Source: an uncultured Chlamydiae bacterium
GTDB taxonomy: Bacteria > Chlamydiota > Chlamydiia > Chlamydiales > Parachlamydiaceae
Assembly (NCBI GenBank): GCA_963754655.1
Contig: CAVWGN010000001.1
Span: forward strand, 1,408,001 to 1,472,000
Reading direction: 5' to 3'
Length of the DNA: 64,000 bases
In this document: piece by piece, positions 18,663-49,002 of the stretch
Layout of the letters: every line of letters starts with the position of its first letter
How positions within the stretch are numbered: the first letter of the stretch is position 1
Notes under the pieces: generated by a model
Told to the model about the DNA's origin: nothing
The model's database searches: none
Seen by the model: the letters and a program-made list of their open reading frames with translations, nothing else
Program-made: the position numbers and the translations under genes

Positions 18663-20069
18663 TTACAAATGCCAGACCGAGTATAATGCCAGATCGAGTA
18701 TATAGTTTTTGGGAGTTTGTAGTAGTGAAGTTAAGGCAAGTTCAATTCGAAGAGCTAAACTCACATATTCACGAGCTCGGTCATTTTGCTTAAGGGCCAC
18801 CAAGACAATTTCTCGATCTTTTTTAAGGCTTTCATCTGCATATTCAAGAGCTGTGCCATCTTGGTTAACGGCAGCCAAGACAATTTCTCGATCTTTTTTA
18901 AGACTTTCATCTGCACATTGAAGAGCTTCCGCACTTTGCTTAATGGCAGCCAAGGCAATTTCTCGATTTTTTTTAAGGCTGGCATCTGCATATTCAAGAG
19001 CCCAGCCATCTTGCTTAACGGCAGCCAAGACAATTTCTCGATCTTTTTTAAGGCTTTTACCTGCATAGCCAAGAGCATCGCCATCTTGCTGAACGGCTGC
19101 CAAAACAATCTCTCGATCTTTTCTAAGGCTTGCATCTGCATAGAGAAGAGCCCAGCCAACTTGGTTAACAGCAGCCAAGACAATTTCTCGATCTTTTGTA
19201 AGGCTTTCATCTACAAATTGGAGAGCCTTGCCATTTTGCTGAACGGCAGCCAAGATAATCTCTCGATCATTTTTAAGACTTTTATCTGCATAGACAAGAG
19301 CATAACCATCTTGGTTAACGGCAGCTAAGACAATCTCTCGATCCTTTTTAAGGCTTTCATGTATATCAAAAACAGCATATCCAAAATAGCGCGCAACTTG
19401 AATAAAAATTTTTTTATCGTTAAAATTGGGAAACTTTTTAAGGGTGGAGATGACGGATGTTTTTGCCTGCCGCCAGGTTGCACTTCGACTCGCGCCTCTA
19501 TAAAGTTTGGCAATAGAATCATTCTCGATAACCGTTAATCTTTGTTCATCCGTGCCTAATATAAGAGAATTCAAAATAGACAACTGCTCTTCGGCCACAA
19601 GCTGGATATTTTTATTGGCGCTAATTTTGCAAACGTCAAGATCCCAGGAGTAGCGATCCAAAAGAGAAAGAAATAAACTCTTTGGGTAAAATAATTTTGA
19701 ATCAACCATTAATAATTTTTTAAAGTTTTTTTTAAAGCAGACTCGATCCATCAATTTAAGTTCTTGAGATGTAAAAGACTCATTATCAGCTGTGAGGCAT
19801 GCTTGCAGGTGGCTAATAGTGGTAGAGGGTTGATGGCTACCTTTAAGTTGAAAAAGAACCTGCACCAATGAAATGCAAGGATTCTTTTGAAGAACGCCTT
19901 TCCATTTTTTACAAGTGAATAAAATAGAAGAAATATGTTTTGAAGAGTAGTTCGGGTTGACAACTTGATCAAAAATAATTCCTAATACCTCATTAGGAAT
20001 TAGTGTATCTAACAAAGAGTCGTTTGAAGTTTTGTGCATTGTTTGCAAATGAGAATGTATATTTTGCAT
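18663..20069 (-). CDS. F-box-like / DUF4116-repeat protein, cluster B copy 1
   Basis: LIPNEVLGIIFDQV motif, repeats, cluster-B tail LALRIELALTSLLQTPKNYILDLALYSVWHL. Confidence 0.85.
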   Translation of the reverse strand: MQNIHSHLQTMHKTSNDSLLDTLIPNEVLGIIFDQVVNPNYSSKHISSILFTCKKWKGVLQKNPCISLVQVLFQLKGSHQPSTTISHLQACLTADNESFTSQELKLMDRVCFKKNFKKLLMVDSKLFYPKSLFLSLLDRYSWDLDVCKISANKNIQLVAEEQLSILNSLILGTDEQRLTVIENDSIAKLYRGASRSATWRQAKTSVISTLKKFPNFNDKKIFIQVARYFGYAVFDIHESLKKDREIVLAAVNQDGYALVYADKSLKNDREIILAAVQQNGKALQFVDESLTKDREIVLAAVNQVGWALLYADASLRKDREIVLAAVQQDGDALGYAGKSLKKDREIVLAAVKQDGWALEYADASLKKNREIALAAIKQSAEALQCADESLKKDREIVLAAVNQDGTALEYADESLKKDREIVLVALKQNDRAREYVSLALRIELALTSLLQTPKNYILDLALYSVWHL

Positions 20070-20174
20070 AATTATTCTGTAAATAAGCTATTGGTTTTAC
20101 TATTTAAATTTAATTTTATTAGATGTTATAATATAAAGTTTGTGATTATGATTCAATGTATTAATTCTACCTGA

Positions 20175-20208
20175 TTAGCGCAATTTAGAAATTTCTAAAT
20201 TGCGCTAA
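20175..20208. promoter_or_regulatory. Perfect 34-bp palindrome between cluster B genes (operator- or terminator-like)
   Basis: TTAGCGCAATTTAGAAATTTCTAAATTGCGCTAA; second copy at 24350-24383 with one mismatch; function inferred. Confidence 0.5.
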
Positions 20209-20285
20209 CGCATCAAATTTTAATCGAACAGCAACAAACTATTTAACAAAATATAGAAAATTTCATTGCTCAACCAAATAAAAAC

Positions 20286-21764
20286 TTACAAATGCCAGAC
20301 CGAATATAATGCCAGATCGGATATATAGTTTTTTGGAGTTTGTAGTAGTGAAGTTAAGGCAATTTCAATTCGAAGAGCTAAACTCACATATTCAAGAACT
20401 CGGTCATTTTGCTTAACGGCCGCCAAGACAATGTCTCGATCTTTTTTAAGGCTTTCATCTGCATACTTAAGAGTCAGGCCATCTTGCTTAACGGCAGCCA
20501 AGACAATGTCTCGATCTTTTTTAAGGCTTGCATCTGCATAGAAAAGAGCCCAGCCATCTTGCTTAACGGCCGCTAAGGCAATCTCTCGATCTTTTTTAAG
20601 GCTTTCATCTGCATATTCAAGAGCGCTGCCTCTTTGCTGAACGGCAGCCAAGACAATTTCTCGATCTTTTTTAAGGCTTGCATCTGCATATTTAATAACA
20701 TAGCCATTTTGCTGAATGGCAGCCAAGACAATTTCTTGATCTTTTTTAAGGCTTTCATTTGCATATTTAAGAGCCCAGCCATCTTGCTGAACAGCAGCCA
20801 AGACAATTTCTCGATTTTTTTTAAGGCTTACATCTGCATATTCAAGAGCTAAGCCCTCTTGCTTAACGGCAGCCAAGACAATTTCTCGATCTTTTTTAAG
20901 GCTTTTACCTGCATAGGCAAGAGCACCTCCTGTTTGCTGAACGGCTGCTAAAACAATCTCTCGATCTTTTCTAAGGCTTATATCTGCATAGAAAAGAGCC
21001 AAGCCAACTTGGTTAACGGCAGCTAAGATAATCTCTCGATCTTTTCTAAAACTTTTAATATCAAAAACAGCCTGTCCAAAACAGCGAACAACCTGAGTAA
21101 AAATTTTTTTATCGTTAAAATTGGGAAATTTTTTAAGTGTGGAGATAACAGATGTTTTTGCCAGCTCCCAGGTTGCACTTAAACTCGCGCCTCTATAAAG
21201 TTTTGCGATAGAATCATTTTCCATAACCGTTAATCTTTGTTCATCCGTGCCGAATATAAGAGAATCTAAAATAGACAACTGCTCTTTAGCCACAAGCTGA
21301 ATGTTTTTATTGGCGCTCTTTTTGCAAAATGCAGGATTCCATGGGTAGCGATCCAAAAGAGAAAGAAATAAACTCTTCGGGTGAAATAATTTTGAATCAA
21401 CCATTAATAATTGTTCAAATCTTTGGTCATCGCTTGCTAGATCGATCAGTTTAAGTTCCTGAGATGTAAAAGACTCATTCTCAGTTGTGAGGCATTCTTG
21501 CAGGTGGCTAATAGTGGTAGAGGATTGATGGCTACCTTTAAGTTGAAAAAGAACCTGCACCAATGAAATGCAACGATTCTTTTGGAGAACGCTTTTCCAT
21601 TTTTTACAGGTAAATAAAATAGAAGAAATATGTTTTGAAGAGTAGTCGGGGTTGACAACTCGATCAAAAATAATGCCTAATACCTCATTTGGAATTAGTG
21701 TATCTAACAAAGAGTCGTTTGAAGCTTTGTATATTGTTTGCAAAGGAGACTGTATATTTTGCAT
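20286..21764 (-). CDS. F-box-like / DUF4116-repeat protein, cluster B copy 2
   Basis: Same architecture, MQNIQSPL subtype. Confidence 0.85.
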   Translation of the reverse strand: MQNIQSPLQTIYKASNDSLLDTLIPNEVLGIIFDRVVNPDYSSKHISSILFTCKKWKSVLQKNRCISLVQVLFQLKGSHQSSTTISHLQECLTTENESFTSQELKLIDLASDDQRFEQLLMVDSKLFHPKSLFLSLLDRYPWNPAFCKKSANKNIQLVAKEQLSILDSLIFGTDEQRLTVMENDSIAKLYRGASLSATWELAKTSVISTLKKFPNFNDKKIFTQVVRCFGQAVFDIKSFRKDREIILAAVNQVGLALFYADISLRKDREIVLAAVQQTGGALAYAGKSLKKDREIVLAAVKQEGLALEYADVSLKKNREIVLAAVQQDGWALKYANESLKKDQEIVLAAIQQNGYVIKYADASLKKDREIVLAAVQQRGSALEYADESLKKDREIALAAVKQDGWALFYADASLKKDRDIVLAAVKQDGLTLKYADESLKKDRDIVLAAVKQNDRVLEYVSLALRIEIALTSLLQTPKNYISDLALYSVWHL

Positions 21765-21817
21765 AATTATCTTGTAAATAAACTATTGATTTTACTATTT
21801 AAATTTAATTTATAATT

Positions 21818-22353
21818 TAGAGTTTTTTACCAAAAATATTTGACACTTACAGCCCTTCAGGCTGCATAACACAACTTACTGATAACCAGGGCGTTGTTCC
21901 ATACGCATCAAGCTAAGAGATGAGCGTAGGCTACGCGACGCATTCAGTCGCCGCGCCGCTTCGCTCTGGGCTCTAGGTGAGGAGGTTGAGGACCCACCGT
22001 TCGGTCGCCCTCCGGGCTCGGTCACAGTGGGCTATTACCAGTCGTCCTACGGACTCTAGCGGCATTATCAGAACGCCTTAAATAGCATTCAATGGCTTTC
22101 TACATTGCCGCTAGAGTCCGTAGGACGACTGGTAATAGCCCACTGTGACCGAGCCCGGAGGGCGACACCGAACGGTGGGTCCTCAACCTCCTCGCCTAGA
22201 GCCCAGAGCGAAGCGGCGCGGCGACTGAAGGCGTCGCGTAGCCTACGCTCATCTCTTAGCTTGATGCGTATGGGACAACGCCCTGGTTATCAGTGAGTTG
22301 TGTCATGCAGCCTGAAGGGTTATAAGTGTCAAATATTTTTGGTAAAAAAACTG
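21818..22353. mobile_element. Palindromic composite element, family 2 copy A
   Basis: Arms 21818-22064 and 22106-22353 are inverted repeats around a 41-bp spacer; flanked by direct TTTATAATT (21809-21817, 22354-22362); GC-rich core in AT-rich DNA. Confidence 0.9.
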
Positions 22354-22552
22354 TTTATAATTTTATTAGATGCTATAATATAAATTTTATGGTTATAATT
22401 CAATGTATTAATTCTAATTATATTAGCACAATTTATAAATTTTTAAACTGCTCTAACCATCAAATTTTAATCGAACAGCAACACATTCTGGAAGAGACAG
22501 CTTTAATGGGAAAAGAATAGTTCCAGAGAAAAAAGTAAGCAAAGCTTATTTT

Positions 22553-22843
22553 TTATGCGTGAGTTTTCTCAACCCAAATGGCAAAAGCTGTGGCATATTG
22601 CTGACAATGACTAAGAGAAACATGAAGGGTGGTAAGATCGTCAAATAATTCTTGTATGAATGGCAAGAAAATAGCGATTGGTTTACCTGTTGGATGATTT
22701 CGAATCTCAATATCCAACTTTCCAGAGAAAAAGGTAAAAAAGATTATTTTTATGCATGAGTTTTCCTTCGATTCGCCTGTTTGTGTAATAGGTTTGAGGG
22801 CATTGGAAAGCATATGAATGTTAATAATTCTTACGCCTTCAAT
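22553..22843 (-). pseudogene. Rearranged remnants of the acpS 3' end and a PIN/TRAM gene segment
   Basis: LDIEIRNHPTGKP...ATAFAIWV matches acpS (31190); MLSNALKPITQ matches the PIN/TRAM gene (31570). Confidence 0.85.
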
Positions 22844-22912
22844 TAAAATATTTCTCTAATATAAACTATTTGACAAACAGTAGAAAATTTGATTGGTCAA
22901 CCGAACAAAAAC

Positions 22913-24244
22913 TTACAAATGCCCGACCGAGTATAATGCCAGATCGAATATATAGTTTCTTGAATTTTGTAGTAGTAAAGTTAAAGCAAGGTCAATTTGA
23001 AGCGCTAAACTCGCATATTGATATCGAAGAGTCAAGCCATATTGCTTAACGGCAGCCCAGACAATGTCTCGATCTTTTTTAAGGCTGTCATCTGCATATT
23101 CACGAGCTTTGCCATCTTGCTGAACGGCAGCCAAGACAATCTCTCGATCTTTTTTAAGGCTTTCATCTGCATATTGAAGAGCTTTGCCATTTTGCTGAAC
23201 GGCTGCTAAAACAATCTCTCGATCTTTTTTAAGGCTTTCATCTGCATATTGAAGAGCATTGCCATGTTCCTGAACAGCAGCCAAAACAATTTCTAGATCT
23301 TTTTTAAGACTTTCATCTGCATAGTGAAGAGCATAGCCTCTTTGCTGAACGGCAGCCAAGACAATCTCTCGATCTTTTTTAAGGCTTTCATCTGCATATT
23401 CAAGGGCCCAGCCATCTTGCTGAACGGCAGCCAAGACAATCTCTCGATCTTTTTTAAGGCTTTCATCTGCATTTCGAAGAGTCCTACCCCTTCGCTGAAC
23501 GCAAGCTAAGACAATCTCTCGATCTTTTTTAACGCGTTCATGTATATCAAAAACAGAATCTCCAAAACAGCGCGCAGCTTGAATAAAAATTTTTTTATCC
23601 TTAAAATTGGAAAAATTTTTAAGTGTGGAGATGACGAATCTTTCTGCTTTCCACCAGGTGGTACCTCGAATCGCGCCTATATAAACTTTTGTGATAGAAT
23701 TATTTGCGATAACCGTTAATCTTTGCTGCTTAGGACCTGATACAAGAGAATTTAAAATAGACAATTGCTCTTTAGCCACTTGATGAATCCTCTTATTGGC
23801 GCTCCATTGGCAAACTTCAGGATCCCATGAATAGTGATCCAAAAGACAAAGAAACAAACTCTTCGGGTGAAATAATTTTGAATCAGCCATTAATAATTTT
23901 TTAAAGGTTCGATCACAGCAGAATCGATCAATCAATTTAAATTCTTGAGAGGTAAAATGCTTCTTTTGGTAAGTTATCATACAATCCTGTAGCGTAATAG
24001 CAGATCGATTACTGTTTTTAAGCTGAAAAAGGGCCTGCACCAATAAAATACAAGGATTTTTTTGGAGAACACTTTTCCATTTTTTACAAGTGAGTAAAAT
24101 AGAAGAAAAATGCCTTGAAGAGCAGCTTAAGTTGATAACTTGATCAAAAACAACTCCTAATATCTCATTAGGAATTAATGTATCTAACAAAGAGTCGCTT
24201 GAAGTTTTTTGCATTGTTTGCAAATGAGAATGTATATTTTGCAT
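22913..24244 (-). CDS. F-box-like / DUF4116-repeat protein, cluster B copy 3
   Basis: Same architecture, MQNIHSHL subtype. Confidence 0.85.
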   Translation of the reverse strand: MQNIHSHLQTMQKTSSDSLLDTLIPNEILGVVFDQVINLSCSSRHFSSILLTCKKWKSVLQKNPCILLVQALFQLKNSNRSAITLQDCMITYQKKHFTSQEFKLIDRFCCDRTFKKLLMADSKLFHPKSLFLCLLDHYSWDPEVCQWSANKRIHQVAKEQLSILNSLVSGPKQQRLTVIANNSITKVYIGAIRGTTWWKAERFVISTLKNFSNFKDKKIFIQAARCFGDSVFDIHERVKKDREIVLACVQRRGRTLRNADESLKKDREIVLAAVQQDGWALEYADESLKKDREIVLAAVQQRGYALHYADESLKKDLEIVLAAVQEHGNALQYADESLKKDREIVLAAVQQNGKALQYADESLKKDREIVLAAVQQDGKAREYADDSLKKDRDIVWAAVKQYGLTLRYQYASLALQIDLALTLLLQNSRNYIFDLALYSVGHL

Positions 24245-24460
24245 AATTGTCCTGTAAATAAACTATTGACTTTACTATTTAAATTTAATTTAATTAGATG
24301 CTATAATATAAATTTTGTGATTATGATTCAATGTATTAATTCTACCTGATTAGCGCAATTTAGAAATTTCTAAATTGTGCTAACGCATCAAATTTTAATC
24401 GAACAGCAACAAACTATTTAACAAACTGTAGAAAAATTAATTGCTCAACCGAATAAAAAC

Positions 24461-26098
24461 TTACAAATGCCAGACCGAATATAATGCCAGATCGGATATA
24501 TAGTTTTTTGGAGTTTGTAGTAGTGAAGTTAAGGCAAGTTCAATTCGAAGAGCTAAACTCACATATTCAAGAGCTCGGTCATTTTGCTTAAGGGCCGCCA
24601 AGACAATTTCTCGATTTTTTTTAAGGCTTACATCTGCATATTCAAGAGCTAAGCCCTCTTGCTTAACGGCAGCCAAGACAATTTCTCGATCTTTTTTAAG
24701 ACTTTTATCTGCATATTGAAGAGCTCCCGCACTTTGCTTAATGGCAGCCAAGACGATCTCTCGATCTTTTTTAAGGCTTTTATGTGCATAGCGAAGAGCT
24801 TCCCAGCCCCAGCCAACTTGGTTAACGGCTGCCAAAACAATCTCTCGATCTTTTCTAAGGCTTGCATCTGCATATTCAAGAGCCAAGCCAACTTGGTTAA
24901 CGGCAGCCAAGACAATTTCTCGATCTTTTTTAAGGCTTTTACCTGCATATTGAAGACCATTGCCCTCTTGCTGAACGGCTGCCAAAACAATCTCTCGATC
25001 TTTTCTAAGGCTTGCATCTGCATAGAAAAGAGCATCGCCACTTTGCTTAACGGCAGCCAAGACAATTTCTCGATCTTTTTTAAGGCTTTCATCTGCATAG
25101 ACAAGAGCCGTACCATCTTGGTTAACGGCCGCCAAGACAATCTCTTGATCTTTTTTAAGGCTTTCATCTACAAATTGGAGAGCGTTGCCATTTTGCTTAA
25201 CGGCCGCCAAGACAATCTCTTGATCTTTTTTAAGGCTTCCATCTGCATATCGAAGAGCTTGGCCATTTTGCTTAACGGCAGCCAAGATAATATCTCGATC
25301 TTTTTTAAGGCTTTCATCTGCATTTCGAAGAGTCCTACCCCTTCGCTGAACGCAAGCTAAGACAATCTCTCGATCCTTTTTAAGGCTTTCATGTATATCA
25401 AAAACAGAGCGTCCAAAACAGCGCGCAACCTGAATAAAAATTTTTTTATCGTTAAAATTGGGAAACTTTTTAAGGGTGGAGATGACGGATGTTTTTGCCT
25501 GCCGCCAGGTTGCACTTCGACTCGCGCCTCTATAAAGTTTGGCAATAGAATCATTCTCGATAACCGTTAATCTTTGTTCATCCGTGCCGAATATGAGAGA
25601 ATTCAAAATAGACAACTGCTCTTCAGCCACAAGCTGGATATTTTTATTGGCGCTAATTGTGCAAAATTCAGGATTCCATGGGCAGCGATCCAAAAGAGAA
25701 AGAAATAAACTTTTCGGGTGAAATAATTTTGAATCCACCATTAACAATTGTTCAAATCTTTGGTTATCATTTGCTAGATCGATTAGTTTAAGTTCCTGAG
25801 ATGTAAAAGACTCATTCTCAGTTGTGAGGCATTCTTGCAGGTGGCTAATAGTAGAGGGGTGATGGCTACCGTTAAGTTGAAAAAGAGCCTGCACCAATGA
25901 AATACAAGGATTCTTTTGGAGAACGCTTTTCCATTTTTTACAGGTAAATAAAATAGAAGAAATATGTTTTGAAGAGTAGTCAGGGTTGACAACTCGATCA
26001 AAAATAATGCCTAATACCTCATTTGGAATTAGTGTATCTAACAAAGAGTCGTTTGAAGCTTTGTATATTGTTTGCAAAGGAGACTGTATATTTTGCAT
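24461..26098 (-). CDS. F-box-like / DUF4116-repeat protein, cluster B copy 4
   Basis: Same architecture, MQNIQSPL subtype, about 11 repeats. Confidence 0.85.
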   Translation of the reverse strand: MQNIQSPLQTIYKASNDSLLDTLIPNEVLGIIFDRVVNPDYSSKHISSILFTCKKWKSVLQKNPCISLVQALFQLNGSHHPSTISHLQECLTTENESFTSQELKLIDLANDNQRFEQLLMVDSKLFHPKSLFLSLLDRCPWNPEFCTISANKNIQLVAEEQLSILNSLIFGTDEQRLTVIENDSIAKLYRGASRSATWRQAKTSVISTLKKFPNFNDKKIFIQVARCFGRSVFDIHESLKKDREIVLACVQRRGRTLRNADESLKKDRDIILAAVKQNGQALRYADGSLKKDQEIVLAAVKQNGNALQFVDESLKKDQEIVLAAVNQDGTALVYADESLKKDREIVLAAVKQSGDALFYADASLRKDREIVLAAVQQEGNGLQYAGKSLKKDREIVLAAVNQVGLALEYADASLRKDREIVLAAVNQVGWGWEALRYAHKSLKKDREIVLAAIKQSAGALQYADKSLKKDREIVLAAVKQEGLALEYADVSLKKNREIVLAALKQNDRALEYVSLALRIELALTSLLQTPKNYISDLALYSVWHL

Positions 26099-26151
26099 AA
26101 TTATCCTGTGAATAAACTATTAATTTTACTATTTAAATTTAATTTATAATT

Positions 26152-26686
26152 CAGAGTTTTTTACCAAAAATATTTGACACTTACAGCCCTTCAGGCTGCA
26201 TAACACAACTTACTGATAACCAGGGCATTGCCCCATACGCATCAAGCTAAGAGATGAGCGTAGGCTACGCGACGCATTCAGTCGCCGCGCCGCTTCACTC
26301 TGGGCTCTATGTAAGGGGGTTGAGGACCCACCGTTCGGTCGCCCTCCGGCTCGGTCACGGTGGGCTATTACCAGTCGCCCTACAAACTCTAGCGGCAATG
26401 TAGAAAGCCATTGAATGCTATTTAAGGCGTTCTGATAATGCCGCTAGAGTCCGTAGGACGACTGGTAATAGCCCACCGTGACCGAGCCCGGAGGGCGACC
26501 GAACGGTGGGTCCTCAACCCCCTTACATAGAGCTCAGAGTGAAGCGGCGCGGCGACTGAATGCGTCGCGTAGCCTACGCTCATCTCTTAGCTTGCTGCGT
26601 ATGGGACAACGCCCTGGTTATCAGTAAGTTGTGTTATGCAGCCTGAAGGGCTGTAAGTGTCAAATATTTTTGGTAAAAAAAACCTG
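26152..26686. mobile_element. Palindromic composite element, family 2 copy B
   Basis: Ends CAG...CTG, flanked by direct TTTATAATT (26143-26151, 26687-26695); spacer 26398-26438 is the reverse complement of the copy A spacer. Confidence 0.9.
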
Positions 26687-26885
26687 TTTATAATTTTATT
26701 AGATATTATAATATAAGTTTTATGGTTATAATTCAATGTATTAATTCTAATTATATTAACACAATTTATAAATTTTTAAACTGCTCTAACCATCAAATTT
26801 TAATCGAACAGTAACACATTCTGGAAGAGATGGCTTTAATGGGAAAAGAATAGTTCCAGAGAAAAAAGTAAGCAAAACTTATTTT

Positions 26886-27268
26886 TTATGCCTGAGTTTT
26901 TCCGACCCAAATGGCAAAAGCTGTGGCATATTGCTGACAATGACTAAGCGAAACATGGAGGGTGGTGAGATCGCCAAATAATTCTTGTGCAAATGGCGAG
27001 AAAATAGCGATTGGTTTACCTGTGGGATGATTTCGAATCTTAATATCTAACCAAGTCAGTCCTTGGAAAAATCCTGTTCCCAAGGTTTTTACAATGGCTT
27101 CTTTAGCTGCAAAGCGGCCTGCTAAGTGAAGAGCAGGCTCTTTGCGTTTGAGACAATAGTCCTGCTCATAGGAGGTAAATACGCGATTGAGAAATCGTTG
27201 TGAATAATGTGTAAGAACTGCTTGAATGCGGGCAGTTTCCACAATGTCATTACCAATTCTCAAATCAT
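26886..27268 (-). pseudogene. acpS: Duplicate acpS, frameshifted just after the start codon
   Basis: Near-identical to 31190-31573 but 1 nt shorter (ATGATTTGAGAATT versus ATGATTTTGGGAATT). Confidence 0.85.
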
Positions 27269-27600
27269 AAAGCCAGAAAATTTTTATGTGTCTTAAGCTC
27301 TTGATTATTATTTGAAAAATCATCCTCTGTCAACAGACTTCCCTTTTCTGCTGCATTGCAGAAAATCATTCTACTCGAAGAAGTGTGTTTAACAGACAAG
27401 ACATAAGCTTTAATTGTTTCCCCAATAAATTCAGCTACTTCATTGACAACTACCATTGTTCCATCTTCCAGGTAACCCACACCTTGACGAGCCTCTTTAC
27501 CATAGCGTTGAATCTTGTTGTTAATCGATTCGTCTGCTTGTATAATAGGTTTGAGGGCATTGGAAAGCATATGAATGTTGATAATTCTTACACCTTCAAT
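27265..27600 (-). pseudogene. Duplicated 3' fragment of the PIN/TRAM gene
   Basis: Matches 31570-31906; similarity stops at CCTTCAAT. Confidence 0.85.
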
Positions 27601-27669
27601 CCAAATATTCTCTCATATAAACTATTTGACAAACTGTAGAAAGTTTGATCGGTCAAGCGAAAAAAAAAC

Positions 27670-29082
27670 TTACAAATGCCAGACCGAGTGTAATGCCAGA
27701 TCGAGTATATAGTTTTTTGAAGTTTGTAGTAGTAGAGTTAGGGCACGTTCAATTCGAAAATCTAAACTCGCATATTCAAGAGCCTTGCTATCTTGCTGAA
27801 TAGCAGCTAAGACAATCTCTCGATCGTTTGTAAGGCTTTCATCTGCATATTGAAGAGCTAAGCCCTTTTGCTTAACGGCTGCCAAGACAATGTCTCGATC
27901 CTTTTTAAGGCTTTTAGCTGCCCAGTAAAGCATATCGCCATCTTGCTTAATGGCAGCCAAGACAATTTCTCGATCTTTTTTAAAGCTTGCATCTGCATAG
28001 AGAAAAGCCAAGAAATTTTGCTTAACGGCAGCTAAGACAATCTCTCGATCTTTTTTAAGGCTTTTATCTGCATAATCAAGAGCCCAGCCCCTTTGCTGAA
28101 TGGCAGCCCAGACAATCTCTCGATCTTTTTGAAAGCTTTTATCTGCATATTTAAGAGATAAGCCCTCTTGCTGAACAGCAGCCCCGACAATTTCTCGATC
28201 TTTTTTAAGGCTTTCATCTGCATATTTAAAAGCCCCGCCATTTTGCTGAACAGCAGCCAAGACAATCTCTCGATCTTTTTTAAAGCTTTCATCTACCAAC
28301 TCAAGAGCCTCTCCATTTTGCTGAACAGCAGCCAAAACAATCTCTCGATCTTTTTTAAGGCTTTCATGTATATCAAAAACAGCATCTCCAAAACAGTGCG
28401 CAACTTGAATGAAAAATTTTTTATCGTTAAAATTGGGAAATTTTTTAAGGGTGGAGATGACAGATGTTTTTGCCTGCCGCCAGGTTGCACTTCGACTTCC
28501 GCCCCTATAAAGTTTTGTGATAGAATCATTTTCGATAACCGTTAATTTTTGTTCATCCGTGCCTAATATAAGAGAATTCAGAATAGACAACTGCTCTTCA
28601 GCCACAAGCTGGATGTTTTTATTGGCGCTCTTTTTGCAAACGTCAAAATCCCAGGAGTAATGATCCAAAAGAGAAAGAAATAAACTCTTTGGGTGAAATA
28701 ATCTTGAATCAACCATTAGTAATTTTTTAAAGTTTTCTTTAAAGTAGACTTGATCAATCAATTTAAATTCTTGAGATGTAAAAGACTTCTTTTGTCCATC
28801 AGTTGTGAGGCATTCTTGGAGGTGCTTAATAGTGTTAGGGCGTTGATGGCTACCTTTAAGTTGAAAAAGAGCCTGCACCAATGAAATGCAAGGGTTCTTT
28901 TGGAGAACGCTTTTCCATTTTTTACAAGTGAGTAAAATAGAAAAGGTGTCATTTAAAGATTGGCTTTGGTTGACAACTTGATCAAAAACAATTCCTAATA
29001 CCTCCTTAGGAATTAGTGTATCTAACAAAGAGTCGTTTGAAGTTTTGTGTATTGTTTGCAAATGAGAATGTATATTTTGCAT
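27670..29082 (-). CDS. F-box-like / DUF4116-repeat protein, cluster B copy 5
   Basis: Same architecture, MQNIHSHL subtype. Confidence 0.85.
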   Translation of the reverse strand: MQNIHSHLQTIHKTSNDSLLDTLIPKEVLGIVFDQVVNQSQSLNDTFSILLTCKKWKSVLQKNPCISLVQALFQLKGSHQRPNTIKHLQECLTTDGQKKSFTSQEFKLIDQVYFKENFKKLLMVDSRLFHPKSLFLSLLDHYSWDFDVCKKSANKNIQLVAEEQLSILNSLILGTDEQKLTVIENDSITKLYRGGSRSATWRQAKTSVISTLKKFPNFNDKKFFIQVAHCFGDAVFDIHESLKKDREIVLAAVQQNGEALELVDESFKKDREIVLAAVQQNGGAFKYADESLKKDREIVGAAVQQEGLSLKYADKSFQKDREIVWAAIQQRGWALDYADKSLKKDREIVLAAVKQNFLAFLYADASFKKDREIVLAAIKQDGDMLYWAAKSLKKDRDIVLAAVKQKGLALQYADESLTNDREIVLAAIQQDSKALEYASLDFRIERALTLLLQTSKNYILDLALHSVWHL

Positions 29083-29395
29083 AATTATCCTATAAATAAG
29101 CTATGATTTTAATATTTAAATTTAATTAATAATTCAATTTTTTTAATAAAAAAGGTGAGTATAATTTATTATTTCCTATAATATAAATCTTATGATTATA
29201 ATTCAATGTATTGTTTCTAATTATATTAAAAAATATAAAAATTTTTAAATTGCCCGAACCCATCAAATTTTAATCGAACAGCAACACATTCTGTAAGAGA
29301 CGGCTTTAATAGGAAAAGAATATTTCCAGAGAAAAGGGCTGCGAACTGTTGACAAATTTATAGACATATATGTTCGAATTTGATATTTCATTAGC

Positions 29396-29962
29396 ATGAA
29401 ACTAAGTAAATGGGCAAAAAAACAAGGCATAAGCTATAGGACTGCTTGGCGCTGGTTCAAAGCAGGACAACTCCCTGTTCCTGCCGAGCAAACAAAAACA
29501 GGAACAATTCTAATCAAAGAGGAAATGCTTGAGCCAAATGCTGTTGCTATCTATGCACGTGTGTCCTCAGCCGATCAAAAAAATGATCTTAACGGGCAAG
29601 TAAGCCGGCTAGTCACTTTTGCCAATCAAAAAGGCTATCTTGTGGCTCACACAGTAACAGAAATAGGCTCTGGCCTCAATGGCCATCGTCCTAAATTAAT
29701 AAAATTATTGAACAATCCAAAGATCTGGATTATTTTAGTCGAACATCGAGATCGATTGATGAGATTTGGTGCTGAATATGTGGAGTCAGCATTAGCTGCA
29801 CAAGGAAGAAAATTAATAGTTGCAGATGGTTCTGAGTTAAAGGATGATTTAGTTCAAGATATGATAGAAGTGTTAACTTCTTTTTGTGCTAGACTATACG
29901 GACGAAGATCGGCAAAGAACAAAGCTAAAAAAGCATTGGAAACCATGCAAAATGCTAATTAA
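29396..29962 (+). CDS. tnpA: IS607 transposase (MerR-like HTH plus serine recombinase)
   Basis: MKLSKWAKKQGISYRTAWRWFKAG; YARVSSADQ; EIGSGLN; DRLMRFG; LTSFCARLYGRR. Confidence 0.95.
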   Translation: MKLSKWAKKQGISYRTAWRWFKAGQLPVPAEQTKTGTILIKEEMLEPNAVAIYARVSSADQKNDLNGQVSRLVTFANQKGYLVAHTVTEIGSGLNGHRPKLIKLLNNPKIWIILVEHRDRLMRFGAEYVESALAAQGRKLIVADGSELKDDLVQDMIEVLTSFCARLYGRRSAKNKAKKALETMQNAN

Positions 29963-31168
29963 AAGAGCTTACCGATATGAATTAAAGCCGAATATCGCTC
30001 AGCGCATCCTCTTAGCCAAGCATGCAGGATCTGCTCGGTTTGCTTATAACTGGGGGCTTGCTGCAAGAATTGAAAAATATGAAAAAGATGGAATATCTAC
30101 TAACGCTATTGAACAGCACCGATTACTCAATAATTTGAAGGGGTCACAATTTTCTTGGATGTATGAGGTGTCAAAATGTGCGCCCCAAGAGGCTTTGAGA
30201 GATCTTGATCGAGCTTTTCAGAATTTTTTCCACCGCCAGAAGAGTGGTAAGAAAGGAGGATTCCCAAAATTTAAGAGAAAGGGGATCAACGATCATTTCC
30301 GATTAACGGGAACCATTAAAGTTAATAAGCAATCCATTCAATTACCTCGTTTGGGTATCATTCGACTTAAAGAGTGTGCAGAAGTACGAGGAAGAATTCT
30401 TTCCGCTACAGTTTCTCGTCAAGCAGATCGGTGGTATGTTAGTGTAACGGTAGAGTGTGAAATAGAAAATTCCCAGCCAGTTGAAGGACCAGCGATTGGC
30501 ATTGATGTCGGGCTAACCTCTTTTGTTACAACTTCAGAAGGTGAAAAAACTATTTCACCAAAGCCTTTAAATAAATCGCTTAAAAAGATAAGAGTATTAA
30601 ATAAAAAACAAAGTCGCAAACAAAAGGGTTCTAGTAATTATAAGAAATCATCTCTTTTGTTAGCCAGACAGCATCGAAAAATCGGCAATCAACGCACTGA
30701 TTTCCATCATAAATTATCAACAAGATTGGCGAAAACCAAGTCAATTATTGTTGTTGAAGATTTGGATGTACAAACTTTGCAGCAAAAGAATAGGTTGATA
30801 GGTTGAGTAGAGGGATTGCCGATGCAGGATGGAGCGGATTTATACGCATGCTTGCCTATAAGACAGAATGGTATGGCTCGAAGCTAATAAGAGCGCCAAG
30901 GTATTATTCTTCTTCAAAAATCTGTTCTCATTGTCAGCATAAAGCCATCCAAATGCCGCTGAACATCAGGGAATGGGTCTGTCAACGTTGCAGTACACAA
31001 CACGATAGAGACATTAATGCAGCCAAAAATTTATTAAAATTGAGTACCGTGAGTTCCACGGGAATTTACGCTTGTGGAGATTCCTCTTGTGGGATAGGCC
31101 AAAAGTCTATTAGCAATGTATCGATGAAGCAAGAAGTAATGAATGGTATATTTGTCCATAAGTTATAG
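29952..31168 (+). pseudogene. tnpB: TnpB RNA-guided endonuclease, frameshifted
   Basis: RAYRYEL...ARFAYN; RuvC motifs GIDVGL, VVEDL, HDRDINAAKN; CSHC/CQRC zinc finger; split by tandem TAGGTTGA duplication at 30791-30806. Confidence 0.9.
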
Positions 31169-33589: not shown

Positions 33590-33738
33590 GACGCCTTCAG
33601 TCGCCGCGCCGCTTCGCTCTGGGCTCTGGGTGAGGAGTTGTGAACCCACCGTTCGGTCGCCCTCTGGGCTCTGTCACGGTGGGTTTACAACTCCTCACCC
33701 AGAGCCCAGAGCGAAGCGGCGCGGCGACTGAAGGCGTC
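33590..33738. repeat. Stand-alone GC-rich hairpin, related to the core module of palindrome family 2
   Basis: About 63-bp arms GACGCCTTCAGTCGCCGCGCCGCTTCGCTCTGGGCTCT... with a 23-nt loop; homologous to 21937-22031. Confidence 0.9.
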
Positions 33739-48430: not shown

Positions 48431-49002
48431 CTAGTACTCAACCCCACTAGTTTTGTGTATTTAGACTCTTCAAAGCCCCGGGGCTAGGGTGTTCATTTTG
48501 TGCAAAAAATGAGCTTTATTTTTCACAATAATTGGCATAGTTAAATTGAAGGTCGCATGTTTATGCCGTCCTTTCAGGACTCGATGTCTTTTTGATAGAA
48601 CCCAGGCCTCCGCTTCGCTGCGACCTGGGCTGTAACATAACGGCCCTTCAGGCCTTAACAAAAAGATGATTTAGGGCTATAGAAGAGGGACTTAAACATC
48701 TCTTGTTAAGGCCTGAAGGGCCGTTATGTTACAGCCCAGGTCGCAGCGAAGCGGAGGCCTGGGTTCTATCAAAAAGACATCGAGTCCTGAAAGGACGGCA
48801 TAAACATGCGACCTTCAATTTAACTATGCCAATTATTGTGAAAAATAAAGCTCATTTTTTGCACAAAATGAACACCCTAGCCCCGGGGTGAATTGGCGTA
48901 ACTGGGTCCATATTGTGCTAATATTGACCCACTTACGCCACAATTCAACCCCGGGGCTTTGAAGCAGTCTAAATACACAAAACTAATGTGGTTGAGTACT
49001 AG
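48431..49002. mobile_element. Palindromic MITE/REPIN-like element, family 1 copy 2
   Basis: Same ends CTAG-TACTCAACC...GGTTGAGTA-CTAG and arms as 1489-1993, in unrelated flanks between convergent genes. Confidence 0.9.
48889..48948. mobile_element. 60-bp hairpin insertion nested in the right arm of family 1 copy 2
   Basis: TGAATTGGCGTAACTGGGTCCATATT-GTGCT-AATATTGACCCACTTACGCCACAATTCAA flanked by CCCCGGGG (48881-48888, 48949-48956); absent from the other three arms. Confidence 0.85.

Follow-up and report, generated by a model that had tools for sequence, protein, structure and literature searches.

Two long palindromic elements lie in the window analyzed here, a 64,000-nt stretch of the genome of an uncultured bacterium of the Parachlamydiaceae (C1:1408001-1472000, where C1 is contig CAVWGN010000001.1; the genome is 3.16 Mb in two contigs). 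Each element is located upstream of a gene that encodes a DUF4116-repeat protein starting with MQNIQSPL. The two are copies of each other, except that the 41-nt loop at the center of one copy is present in the other as its exact reverse complement and that five of the substitutions separating the copies appear in both arms of each. We consider it likely, although well short of certain, that a single insertion was duplicated, that the loop was then inverted in place, and that changes in one arm were copied to the other arm, most likely via template switching. Positions are given in window coordinates unless preceded by C1.

Inverted loops and mirrored arm changes

The elements are GC-rich and measure 536 nt (element 1, 21818-22353) and 535 nt (element 2, 26152-26686). 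Each is separated by 53 nt from the ATG of its downstream MQNIQSPL gene. They consist of the following parts, none of which has a strand.

21809-21817: left 9-bp target-site duplication of element 1, TTTATAATT
21818-22064: left arm of element 1; the outer ~82 nt are a shell module that is found alone elsewhere in the genome, and the remainder is a GC-rich core
22065-22105: loop of element 1, 41 nt, orientation A
22106-22353: right arm of element 1
22354-22362: right 9-bp target-site duplication of element 1, TTTATAATT
26143-26151: left 9-bp target-site duplication of element 2, TTTATAATT
26152-26397: left arm of element 2
26398-26438: loop of element 2, 41 nt, exact reverse complement of 22065-22105
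26439-26686: right arm of element 2
26687-26695: right 9-bp target-site duplication of element 2, TTTATAATT

We aligned both arms of both elements after reverse-complementing the right arms. In this four-arm alignment, 224 columns were invariant. Five columns were mirrored, with both arms of copy 1 carrying one state and both arms of copy 2 carrying the other: TTCG/TTCA, three sites within TAGGTGAGGAGG/TATGTAAGGGGG, and CACAG/CACGG. Not a single column displayed the crossed pattern. At the outer tip, one side-specific column and a common indel state showed the same left/right asymmetry in the two copies, indicating that the element as a whole was not turned round. Another 15 changes were private to single arms (2 in the left and 6 in the right arm of copy 1, 5 in the left and 2 in the right arm of copy 2), and 5 columns contained indels. 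Chance was assessed with 200,000 simulations on a star tree, in which the same numbers of changes were placed as random hits. At least three mirrored coincidences arose in 0.009% of the simulations, and five arose in none.

The mirrored states were compared with the consensus of the repeat family, based on 36 aligned arms. Copy 1 carries the derived state at two of the five sites (GGAGG and CACAG) and copy 2 at the other three (TTCA, TATG, and GTAAGG). No other aligned arm has TTCA or GGAGG, a single other one has TATG, and none of the 36 arms qualified as a third-party donor of the mirrored states. Since most of the mirrored states are unique to their copy and the 41-nt loop is unique to this pair, they do not appear to have been imported from an existing third copy and would have arisen within each copy.

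An earlier description of this region, drawn from the letters alone and referred to here as the sequence-only reading, had called the 41-bp spacers exact reverse complements, and the identity is indeed 41 of 41. It had also listed five substitutions shared by both arms of each copy, and our alignment returned exactly those five sites. Its placement of both copies at the same position upstream of MQNIQSPL genes, with the same flanks, agrees with the presence of TTTATAATT at all four flanks. The coordinates that it gave were right overall, but element 1 ends at 22353, one base further than it had implied.

One insertion followed by duplication

Both elements are part of a 2.35-kb colinear duplication that extends from the gene body across the spacer and reaches into acpS. 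The relevant features are as follows (those without a sign have no strand).

20286-21764 (-): DUF4116-repeat gene downstream of element 1, 492 aa, starts MQNIQSPL, PF13475 E 1.2e-90
24461-26098 (-): DUF4116-repeat gene downstream of element 2, 545 aa, starts MQNIQSPL, PF13475 E 3.4e-143
20387-22718: duplicated tract, copy A, colinear with 24712-27051; ends inside a truncated acpS copy (ORF 22553-22813)
24712-27051: duplicated tract, copy B; continues into the intact acpS (26886-27323, PF01648)
24286-24292: empty insertion site in an older paralogous spacer, upstream of gene 22913-24244
Upstream of genes 18663-20069 and 27670-29082: two more empty sites in paralogous spacers

Three paralogous spacers are thus empty at the insertion point. 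The two filled copies have characters in common that are rare or absent elsewhere. All four arms carry a G at a shell position where none of 54 other arms does, and a C and an A at two further shell positions where these bases occur in 3 and 4 of the 54 other arms, respectively. Both loops contain a 1-nt insertion that is absent in the 13 other aligned loops of the family, none of which has the 41-nt form. The arms diverge between copies by 4.9 and 5.3%, and the flanks by 3.3 to 6.3%. Descent of both copies from one insertion is therefore well supported by these comparisons, which join a colinear duplication, identical target repeats, unique common characters, arm divergence equal to flank divergence, and the common tip asymmetry.

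The downstream genes are both intact, with a dS of 0.149 and a dN/dS of 0.30 over 234 N-terminal codons. They belong to a tandem array of minus-strand genes for DUF4116-repeat proteins in this region (PF13475, E 1e-72 to 3e-143). According to the available part of one report, a ubiquitination-related family of the DUF4116 kind has undergone massive expansion in the Parachlamydiaceae (PMC4209131). The intact acpS at 26886-27323 encodes 145 aa; the tandem duplication left an 86-aa ORF remnant at 22553-22813 that has no Pfam match. About 470 bp of copy B are absent from copy A.

Proposed history of the two copies

The history that we favor would begin with a composite, noncoding palindrome, similar to a miniature inverted-repeat transposable element (MITE), inserting once into the spacer between acpS and a DUF4116 gene and making a 9-bp target duplication. 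The locus would then have been duplicated in tandem, or copied onto a neighboring paralog, giving two descendants of one insertion. In one copy, which could be either of the two, the loop, possibly together with some of the inner arm, would have been replaced by its reverse complement. In both copies, point mutations of one arm would have been copied to the other arm, at two sites in copy 1 and three sites in copy 2, with the 15 later changes still private to single arms.

The most likely process would be a replicating strand that switches template between the two arms. If the switch points were asymmetric, loop flipping and equalization of the inner arms could result from a single event. A strand that left one arm, copied back across the loop, and returned early would produce an inverted loop and identical inner arms, and a strand that switched onto the other arm without crossing the loop would bring about mismatch correction only. 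RecA-dependent exchange or gene conversion between the arms would be an alternative route; RecA is present in the genome.

The sequence-only reading had arrived at a similar order of events, with one insertion that was later duplicated and a center that was flipped and arms that were corrected after the duplication. The first part is borne out by the colinear duplication, which includes acpS, by the equal divergence of arms and flanks, and by the common derived characters. The second part gains support from the inverted loop and the copy-specific mirrored states, as far as sequence comparison can show. Independent insertions, which that reading had named among the cases that would overturn it, are opposed by the lack of a fixed target and by the unique characters common to both copies.

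Several points weigh against our account. The mirrored sites are confined to 66 of the ~245 arm positions and lie partly in a segment that is hypervariable in the family; the pattern may owe something to hot spots of local mutation or to short tracts converted from elsewhere. Of the five mirrored changes, four are G/A, two of them at CpG, which makes parallel mutation somewhat likelier than the uniform simulation assumes. The dS of the genes (0.149) exceeds the divergence of arms and spacer (~0.05) about threefold, so a history of one duplication followed by clock-like decay is incomplete, and later copying between loci is possible. The genes may already have been diverged when the spacer and element were copied from one locus to the other, or the spacer and element may be constrained. 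Template switching and recombination look alike at the sequence level, either copy may be the one that flipped, and the homopolymer-length asymmetry at the tips is too weak to serve as a marker. Finally, both elements are known from a single assembly, in which mispolished arms or an arbitrary loop orientation are possible.

Genome-wide, loop orientation follows flank orientation in 116 of 120 same-family palindrome pairs with orientable homologous flanks, counted with looser filters; the pairs are nonindependent, as 106 come from one other loop family (~98-nt arms), and their flanks are dominated by repeats. Besides elements 1 and 2, three pairs were discordant, but these involve overlapping palindrome calls at C1:1598307 and C1:2994912-2995623 and are not trusted. 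Under strict unique-flank filters, elements 1 and 2 are the only qualifying duplicated palindrome pair in the genome. The concordance suggests that flips are rare and historical rather than frequent, and the flip described here would be such an event rather than ongoing switching.

Repeat family and genomic background

Each element is a composite of a ~80-nt shell module on each side, GC-rich core arms, and the 41-nt loop. The shell module occurs alone or around other cargo at many sites in the genome, and the GC-rich core is also found on its own. BLAST detected 314 segments of the repeat in the genome, and 58 shell arms are at least 60 nt long; full-length composites number about five in 3.16 Mb. 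AT-rich direct repeats of 9 bp were observed at four sites, namely, the site of elements 1 and 2, C1:696220, C1:2120975, and C1:2493925. Other shell-bounded insertions have differing target repeats (GATAAAAYT, ATTTTTAAR, and CACATTYACT). As the target 9-mers differ between insertions, transposition does not depend on a fixed target, which makes it very unlikely that one nucleotide was hit twice. The element is MITE-like, in that it has terminal inverted repeats and target duplications at independent insertions, is multicopy, and lacks coding capacity. A 62- to 63-aa ORF does run in each palindrome from the loop outward through one arm (22105-22296, plus strand; 26210-26398, minus strand). A Pfam search with the 63-aa product gave no match, and the ORF most likely arises incidentally from the GC-rich arm. 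The same shell ends also bound a 2.2-kb unit at C1:2493925-2496138, which has the 9- to 10-bp direct repeat CACATTYACT and a gene for a 375-aa DDE_Tnp_1/DUF772 transposase. It is a candidate for the autonomous partner of the shell modules or, alternatively, for an insertion sequence (IS) nested inside one.

In 11 of 13 paired copies, the two arms of the same copy are each other's nearest relatives; for these copies, symmetry inherited at transposition is indistinguishable from renewal in place. At C1:1389993-1391675, two arms of the family lie ~1.4 kb apart, with six derived states in common and one position differing, as would be expected had a later insertion landed in the center of one palindrome.

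Predicted folding of element 1 as single-stranded DNA gave one hairpin of -326.6 kcal/mol (z = -48 versus 100 shuffles). When the 535-nt element was compared with 40 relatives, 7 of them contained short, weak matches (32 to 168 nt, best E 1.3e-8). No exact match to a degenerate 34-nt loop pattern turned up in genome contigs or in metagenome contigs, in a search that possibly left out the genome itself. Rfam returned only subthreshold matches to microRNA hairpins, the best with 49 bits against a gathering score of 86; we regard these as generic hairpin matches and rejected an Rfam identity. The Acido-Lenti-1 motif had no match within 21000-27500. None of the papers listed (10 of 361 matches) for palindromic or inverted repeats in Parachlamydiaceae contained the name Parachlamydiaceae, which is not proof that the repeats are undescribed. 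A search of public runs listed one soil metagenome and no RNA data. In this metagenome run, which contained 0.08 of the sampled words, contigs were 85 to 99% alike to DUF4116 repeats and palindrome fragments of 21400-26900, and none of the listed pieces over this interval bridged an element between unique flanks. To judge from these contigs, a related organism with related repeats exists in soil.

Long palindromes are abundant in this genome. A seed scan made ~340 calls, including overlapping ones (163 are well isolated), with a median arm of 147 nt and a modal spacer of 40 to 49 nt. The loops fall into a few conserved families; the two largest, of ~90 and ~30 copies, are found on the chromosome in either orientation. 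Elsewhere in the window, palindromes are located at 1489-1992, 33590-33738, and 48476-48888; the arms of the other two large ones are 194 and 186 nt long and 100% complementary. In Escherichia coli, loss of the hairpin nuclease SbcCD lets long palindromes survive. SbcD (TIGR00619) had no match in the genome, with the control search positive in 13 of 14 reference genomes, and SbcC (TIGR00618) gave weak N-terminal P-loop matches only. Absence of the hairpin nuclease would fit the tolerance of hundreds of long palindromes.

An IS607-type pair is located at 29396-30806, ~2.7 kb from element 2 and ~7 kb from element 1. It consists of a serine recombinase TnpA (PF00239) followed by OrfB_IS605/TnpB and shows no sign of action on the palindromes.

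Alternative explanations

A palindrome can pair with another copy in either orientation, and a flipped loop could also be installed by a short gene conversion tract from the sister copy, or from another family member, that aligned in reverse; the mirrored states would be imported from a donor that was symmetric beforehand. We consider this unlikely, although some observations are in its favor. The loops have 0 differences in 41 positions while the flanks differ by 3 to 6%, and the divergence of arms and spacer, being lower than the dS of the neighboring genes, hints at later exchange between the loci. Moreover, at two shell positions three of the four arms have derived bases in common, and only the right arm of copy 1 has those of the family consensus, so that either copy 2 was homogenized there too or copy 1 was patched from another shell. 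Members of the family do recombine: mosaic copies at C1:1815912-1816401 and C1:1323965-1324175 (C1:1323965 with 1324135) contain two loops, opposite in orientation and 100 to 170 nt apart, and appear to have arisen by recombination or template switching, either between palindromes or within one. However, no other copy in the genome has the copy-specific mirrored states or the 41-nt loop, which leaves no third-party donor today. The length of a tract from the sister would be limited to less than ~110 nt, given that the nearest mirrored difference is 35 nt from the loop, and it would erase mirrored differences between the copies, not create them.

Another proposal concerns the consequence of the flip, for which the sequence-only reading had suggested a recombinase-free invertible switch. 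The element's only directional signal would be a sigma-70/66-like promoter in the loop, and flipping between the arms would re-aim it toward or away from the DUF4116 gene, giving a heritable ON/OFF state without a dedicated invertase. The sites concerned are as follows.

22064-22092 (-): promoter-like site TTGAAT-17-GATAAT in the loop of element 1, 9/12 match, directed toward gene 20286-21764
26411-26439 (+): promoter-like site TTGAAT-17-GATAAT in the loop of element 2, directed away from gene 24461-26098 and antisense to acpS
22375-22403 (-): promoter-like site TTGAAT-17-TATTAT just upstream of the insertion point, conserved at 26708-26736 and in the empty paralog at 24303-24331

In copy 1 the 9/12 motif shares its strand with the gene, and in copy 2 it lies on the opposite one. 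All 15 family loops have TTGAAT unchanged and 12 of them match GATAAT exactly, with variable bases between the two hexamers. Both genes are intact, with a dN/dS of 0.30. The site at 22375-22403 is a candidate for the native promoter, now parted from its gene by the palindrome. Its conservation ahead of the insertion point, in paralogs with and without the element, would put a 535-nt hairpin into the native 5' leader. On the other side, a 9/12 motif is weak for AT-rich DNA, and such sites number 6 to 7 per kb here versus 2.6 to 2.7 in shuffles. Conservation is just as high in the rest of the loop, making that of the hexamers nonspecific, and the 116/120 concordance of loops and flanks argues against frequent flipping. 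The motif was not seen in the loops of the two larger palindrome families, which were inspected by reading only, with no scan run. We found no invertase gene beside either element among the ORFs of 19000-30000, nine of which were scanned against Pfam; the IS607-type pair holds the only recombinase-type gene. A promoter switch is thus an unlikely proposition. The wider idea of a transposable phase variation module, flipped by replication or by RecA and set ON in copy 1 and OFF in copy 2, in a genome that tolerates palindromes for lack of SbcCD, strikes us as equally improbable on the sequence evidence.

We give little credence to an artifact of assembly or polishing, a possibility that the sequence-only reading had raised itself, in which one locus was given an arbitrary loop orientation or single-arm variants were mirrored during polishing by reads that map to both arms. 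Assemblers and polishers have difficulty with palindromes, and both elements are known here as assembled sequence. Nevertheless, an assembly of two contigs despite hundreds of repeats points to long reads that span 0.5-kb elements. The 15 single-arm differences and the five indel columns were kept, which argues against collapsed arms, and the mirrored states are copy specific, whereas cross-mapping would blur the copies.

Two independent insertions in opposite orientations into the same 9-bp target of paralogous spacers, from slightly different sources, are hardly credible: the element is mobile, with 9-bp target duplications at several unrelated sites, and sources would arrive already symmetric, as every family copy has mirroring arms, but the target 9-mers show no site specificity, two of only about five full-length composites would be needed at the same nucleotide, the tips have the same asymmetry instead of the crossed pattern expected, arm divergence equals flank divergence, and the unique common characters would need the same private source twice.

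Discussion

The in-place inversion and arm-to-arm copying that we propose resemble several known systems. Template switch mutation at quasi-palindromes was reportedly described by Ripley in 1982. A four-point model of such mutation has since been set out, as the available part of the source indicates (PMC5453318). In the accessible portion of the largest survey, one of rRNA genes, a compensatory change combined with loop inversion is presented as the signature of template switching and, in the authors' view, the strongest support for the model; the same portion gives only six such cases, with loops typically of 4 nt (PMC8794818). As in template switch mutations, the inverted segment here is bounded exactly by inverted repeats, the loop is turned into its reverse complement, changes in one arm recur as complements in the other, and no dedicated recombinase is needed. 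The pair of elements combines an exact inversion between inverted repeats with a homologous locus and mirrored stem changes. Unlike the cases in the rRNA survey, ours has a 41-nt loop and ~245-nt arms, concerns a DNA palindrome that is mobile instead of an RNA gene, and owes its dating to a segmental duplication inside a single genome.

Minute inversions in hairpin loops of chloroplast noncoding DNA are said to have been reported by Kelchner and Wendel in 1996. There, too, short spacers between inverted repeats flip in place without a recombinase. In contrast to our elements, the stems are a few to tens of bases long and the flips are recurrent and mislead phylogenies; here, flips look rare. 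Arm-to-arm gene conversion in the palindromes of the human Y chromosome was reportedly shown by Rozen et al. in 2003. Such conversion in large palindromes is also named in the part of PMC7023750 available to us. The likeness is that the arms of one palindrome are more alike than the homologous arms of a diverged copy. Palindromes of the Y type, however, are of kilobase to megabase size, gene bearing, and eukaryotic and have long spacers, whereas ours is a 0.5-kb noncoding bacterial repeat.

Invertible promoters include fimS, hin, and the Bacteroides-type invertons, which are site specific, and the Campylobacter fetus sap promoter, whose inversion depends on RecA. Our elements share with them a directional promoter-like sequence between inverted repeats, upstream of a variable gene family of the surface or effector type. 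They differ in that there is no adjacent invertase and that the arms are ~245 nt long, not the short inverted repeats of 10 to 30 nt (~10 to 30 bp) of an inverton, with a segment of only 41 nt.

The locus adds a large and clean case to a known class of events; should there be no switch, it would stand as a textbook case and offer no new mechanism. Its footprint, in a bacterial mobile palindrome, is more than 10 times the scale of the loops given in the accessible portion of the rRNA survey (PMC8794818). It also brings its own internal control, as the duplicated flanks define the orientation and give a yardstick of divergence. For this genome, it would mean that the arm symmetry of hundreds of palindromes is not only inherited at transposition but also renewed in place. 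The pair of loci makes it possible to measure the flip rate, its RecA dependence, and the effect on expression of what the available text describes as an expanded host interaction gene family (PMC4209131). Were the promoter switch true, paralogous effector-like DUF4116 genes would have a heritable ON/OFF control that needs no invertase.

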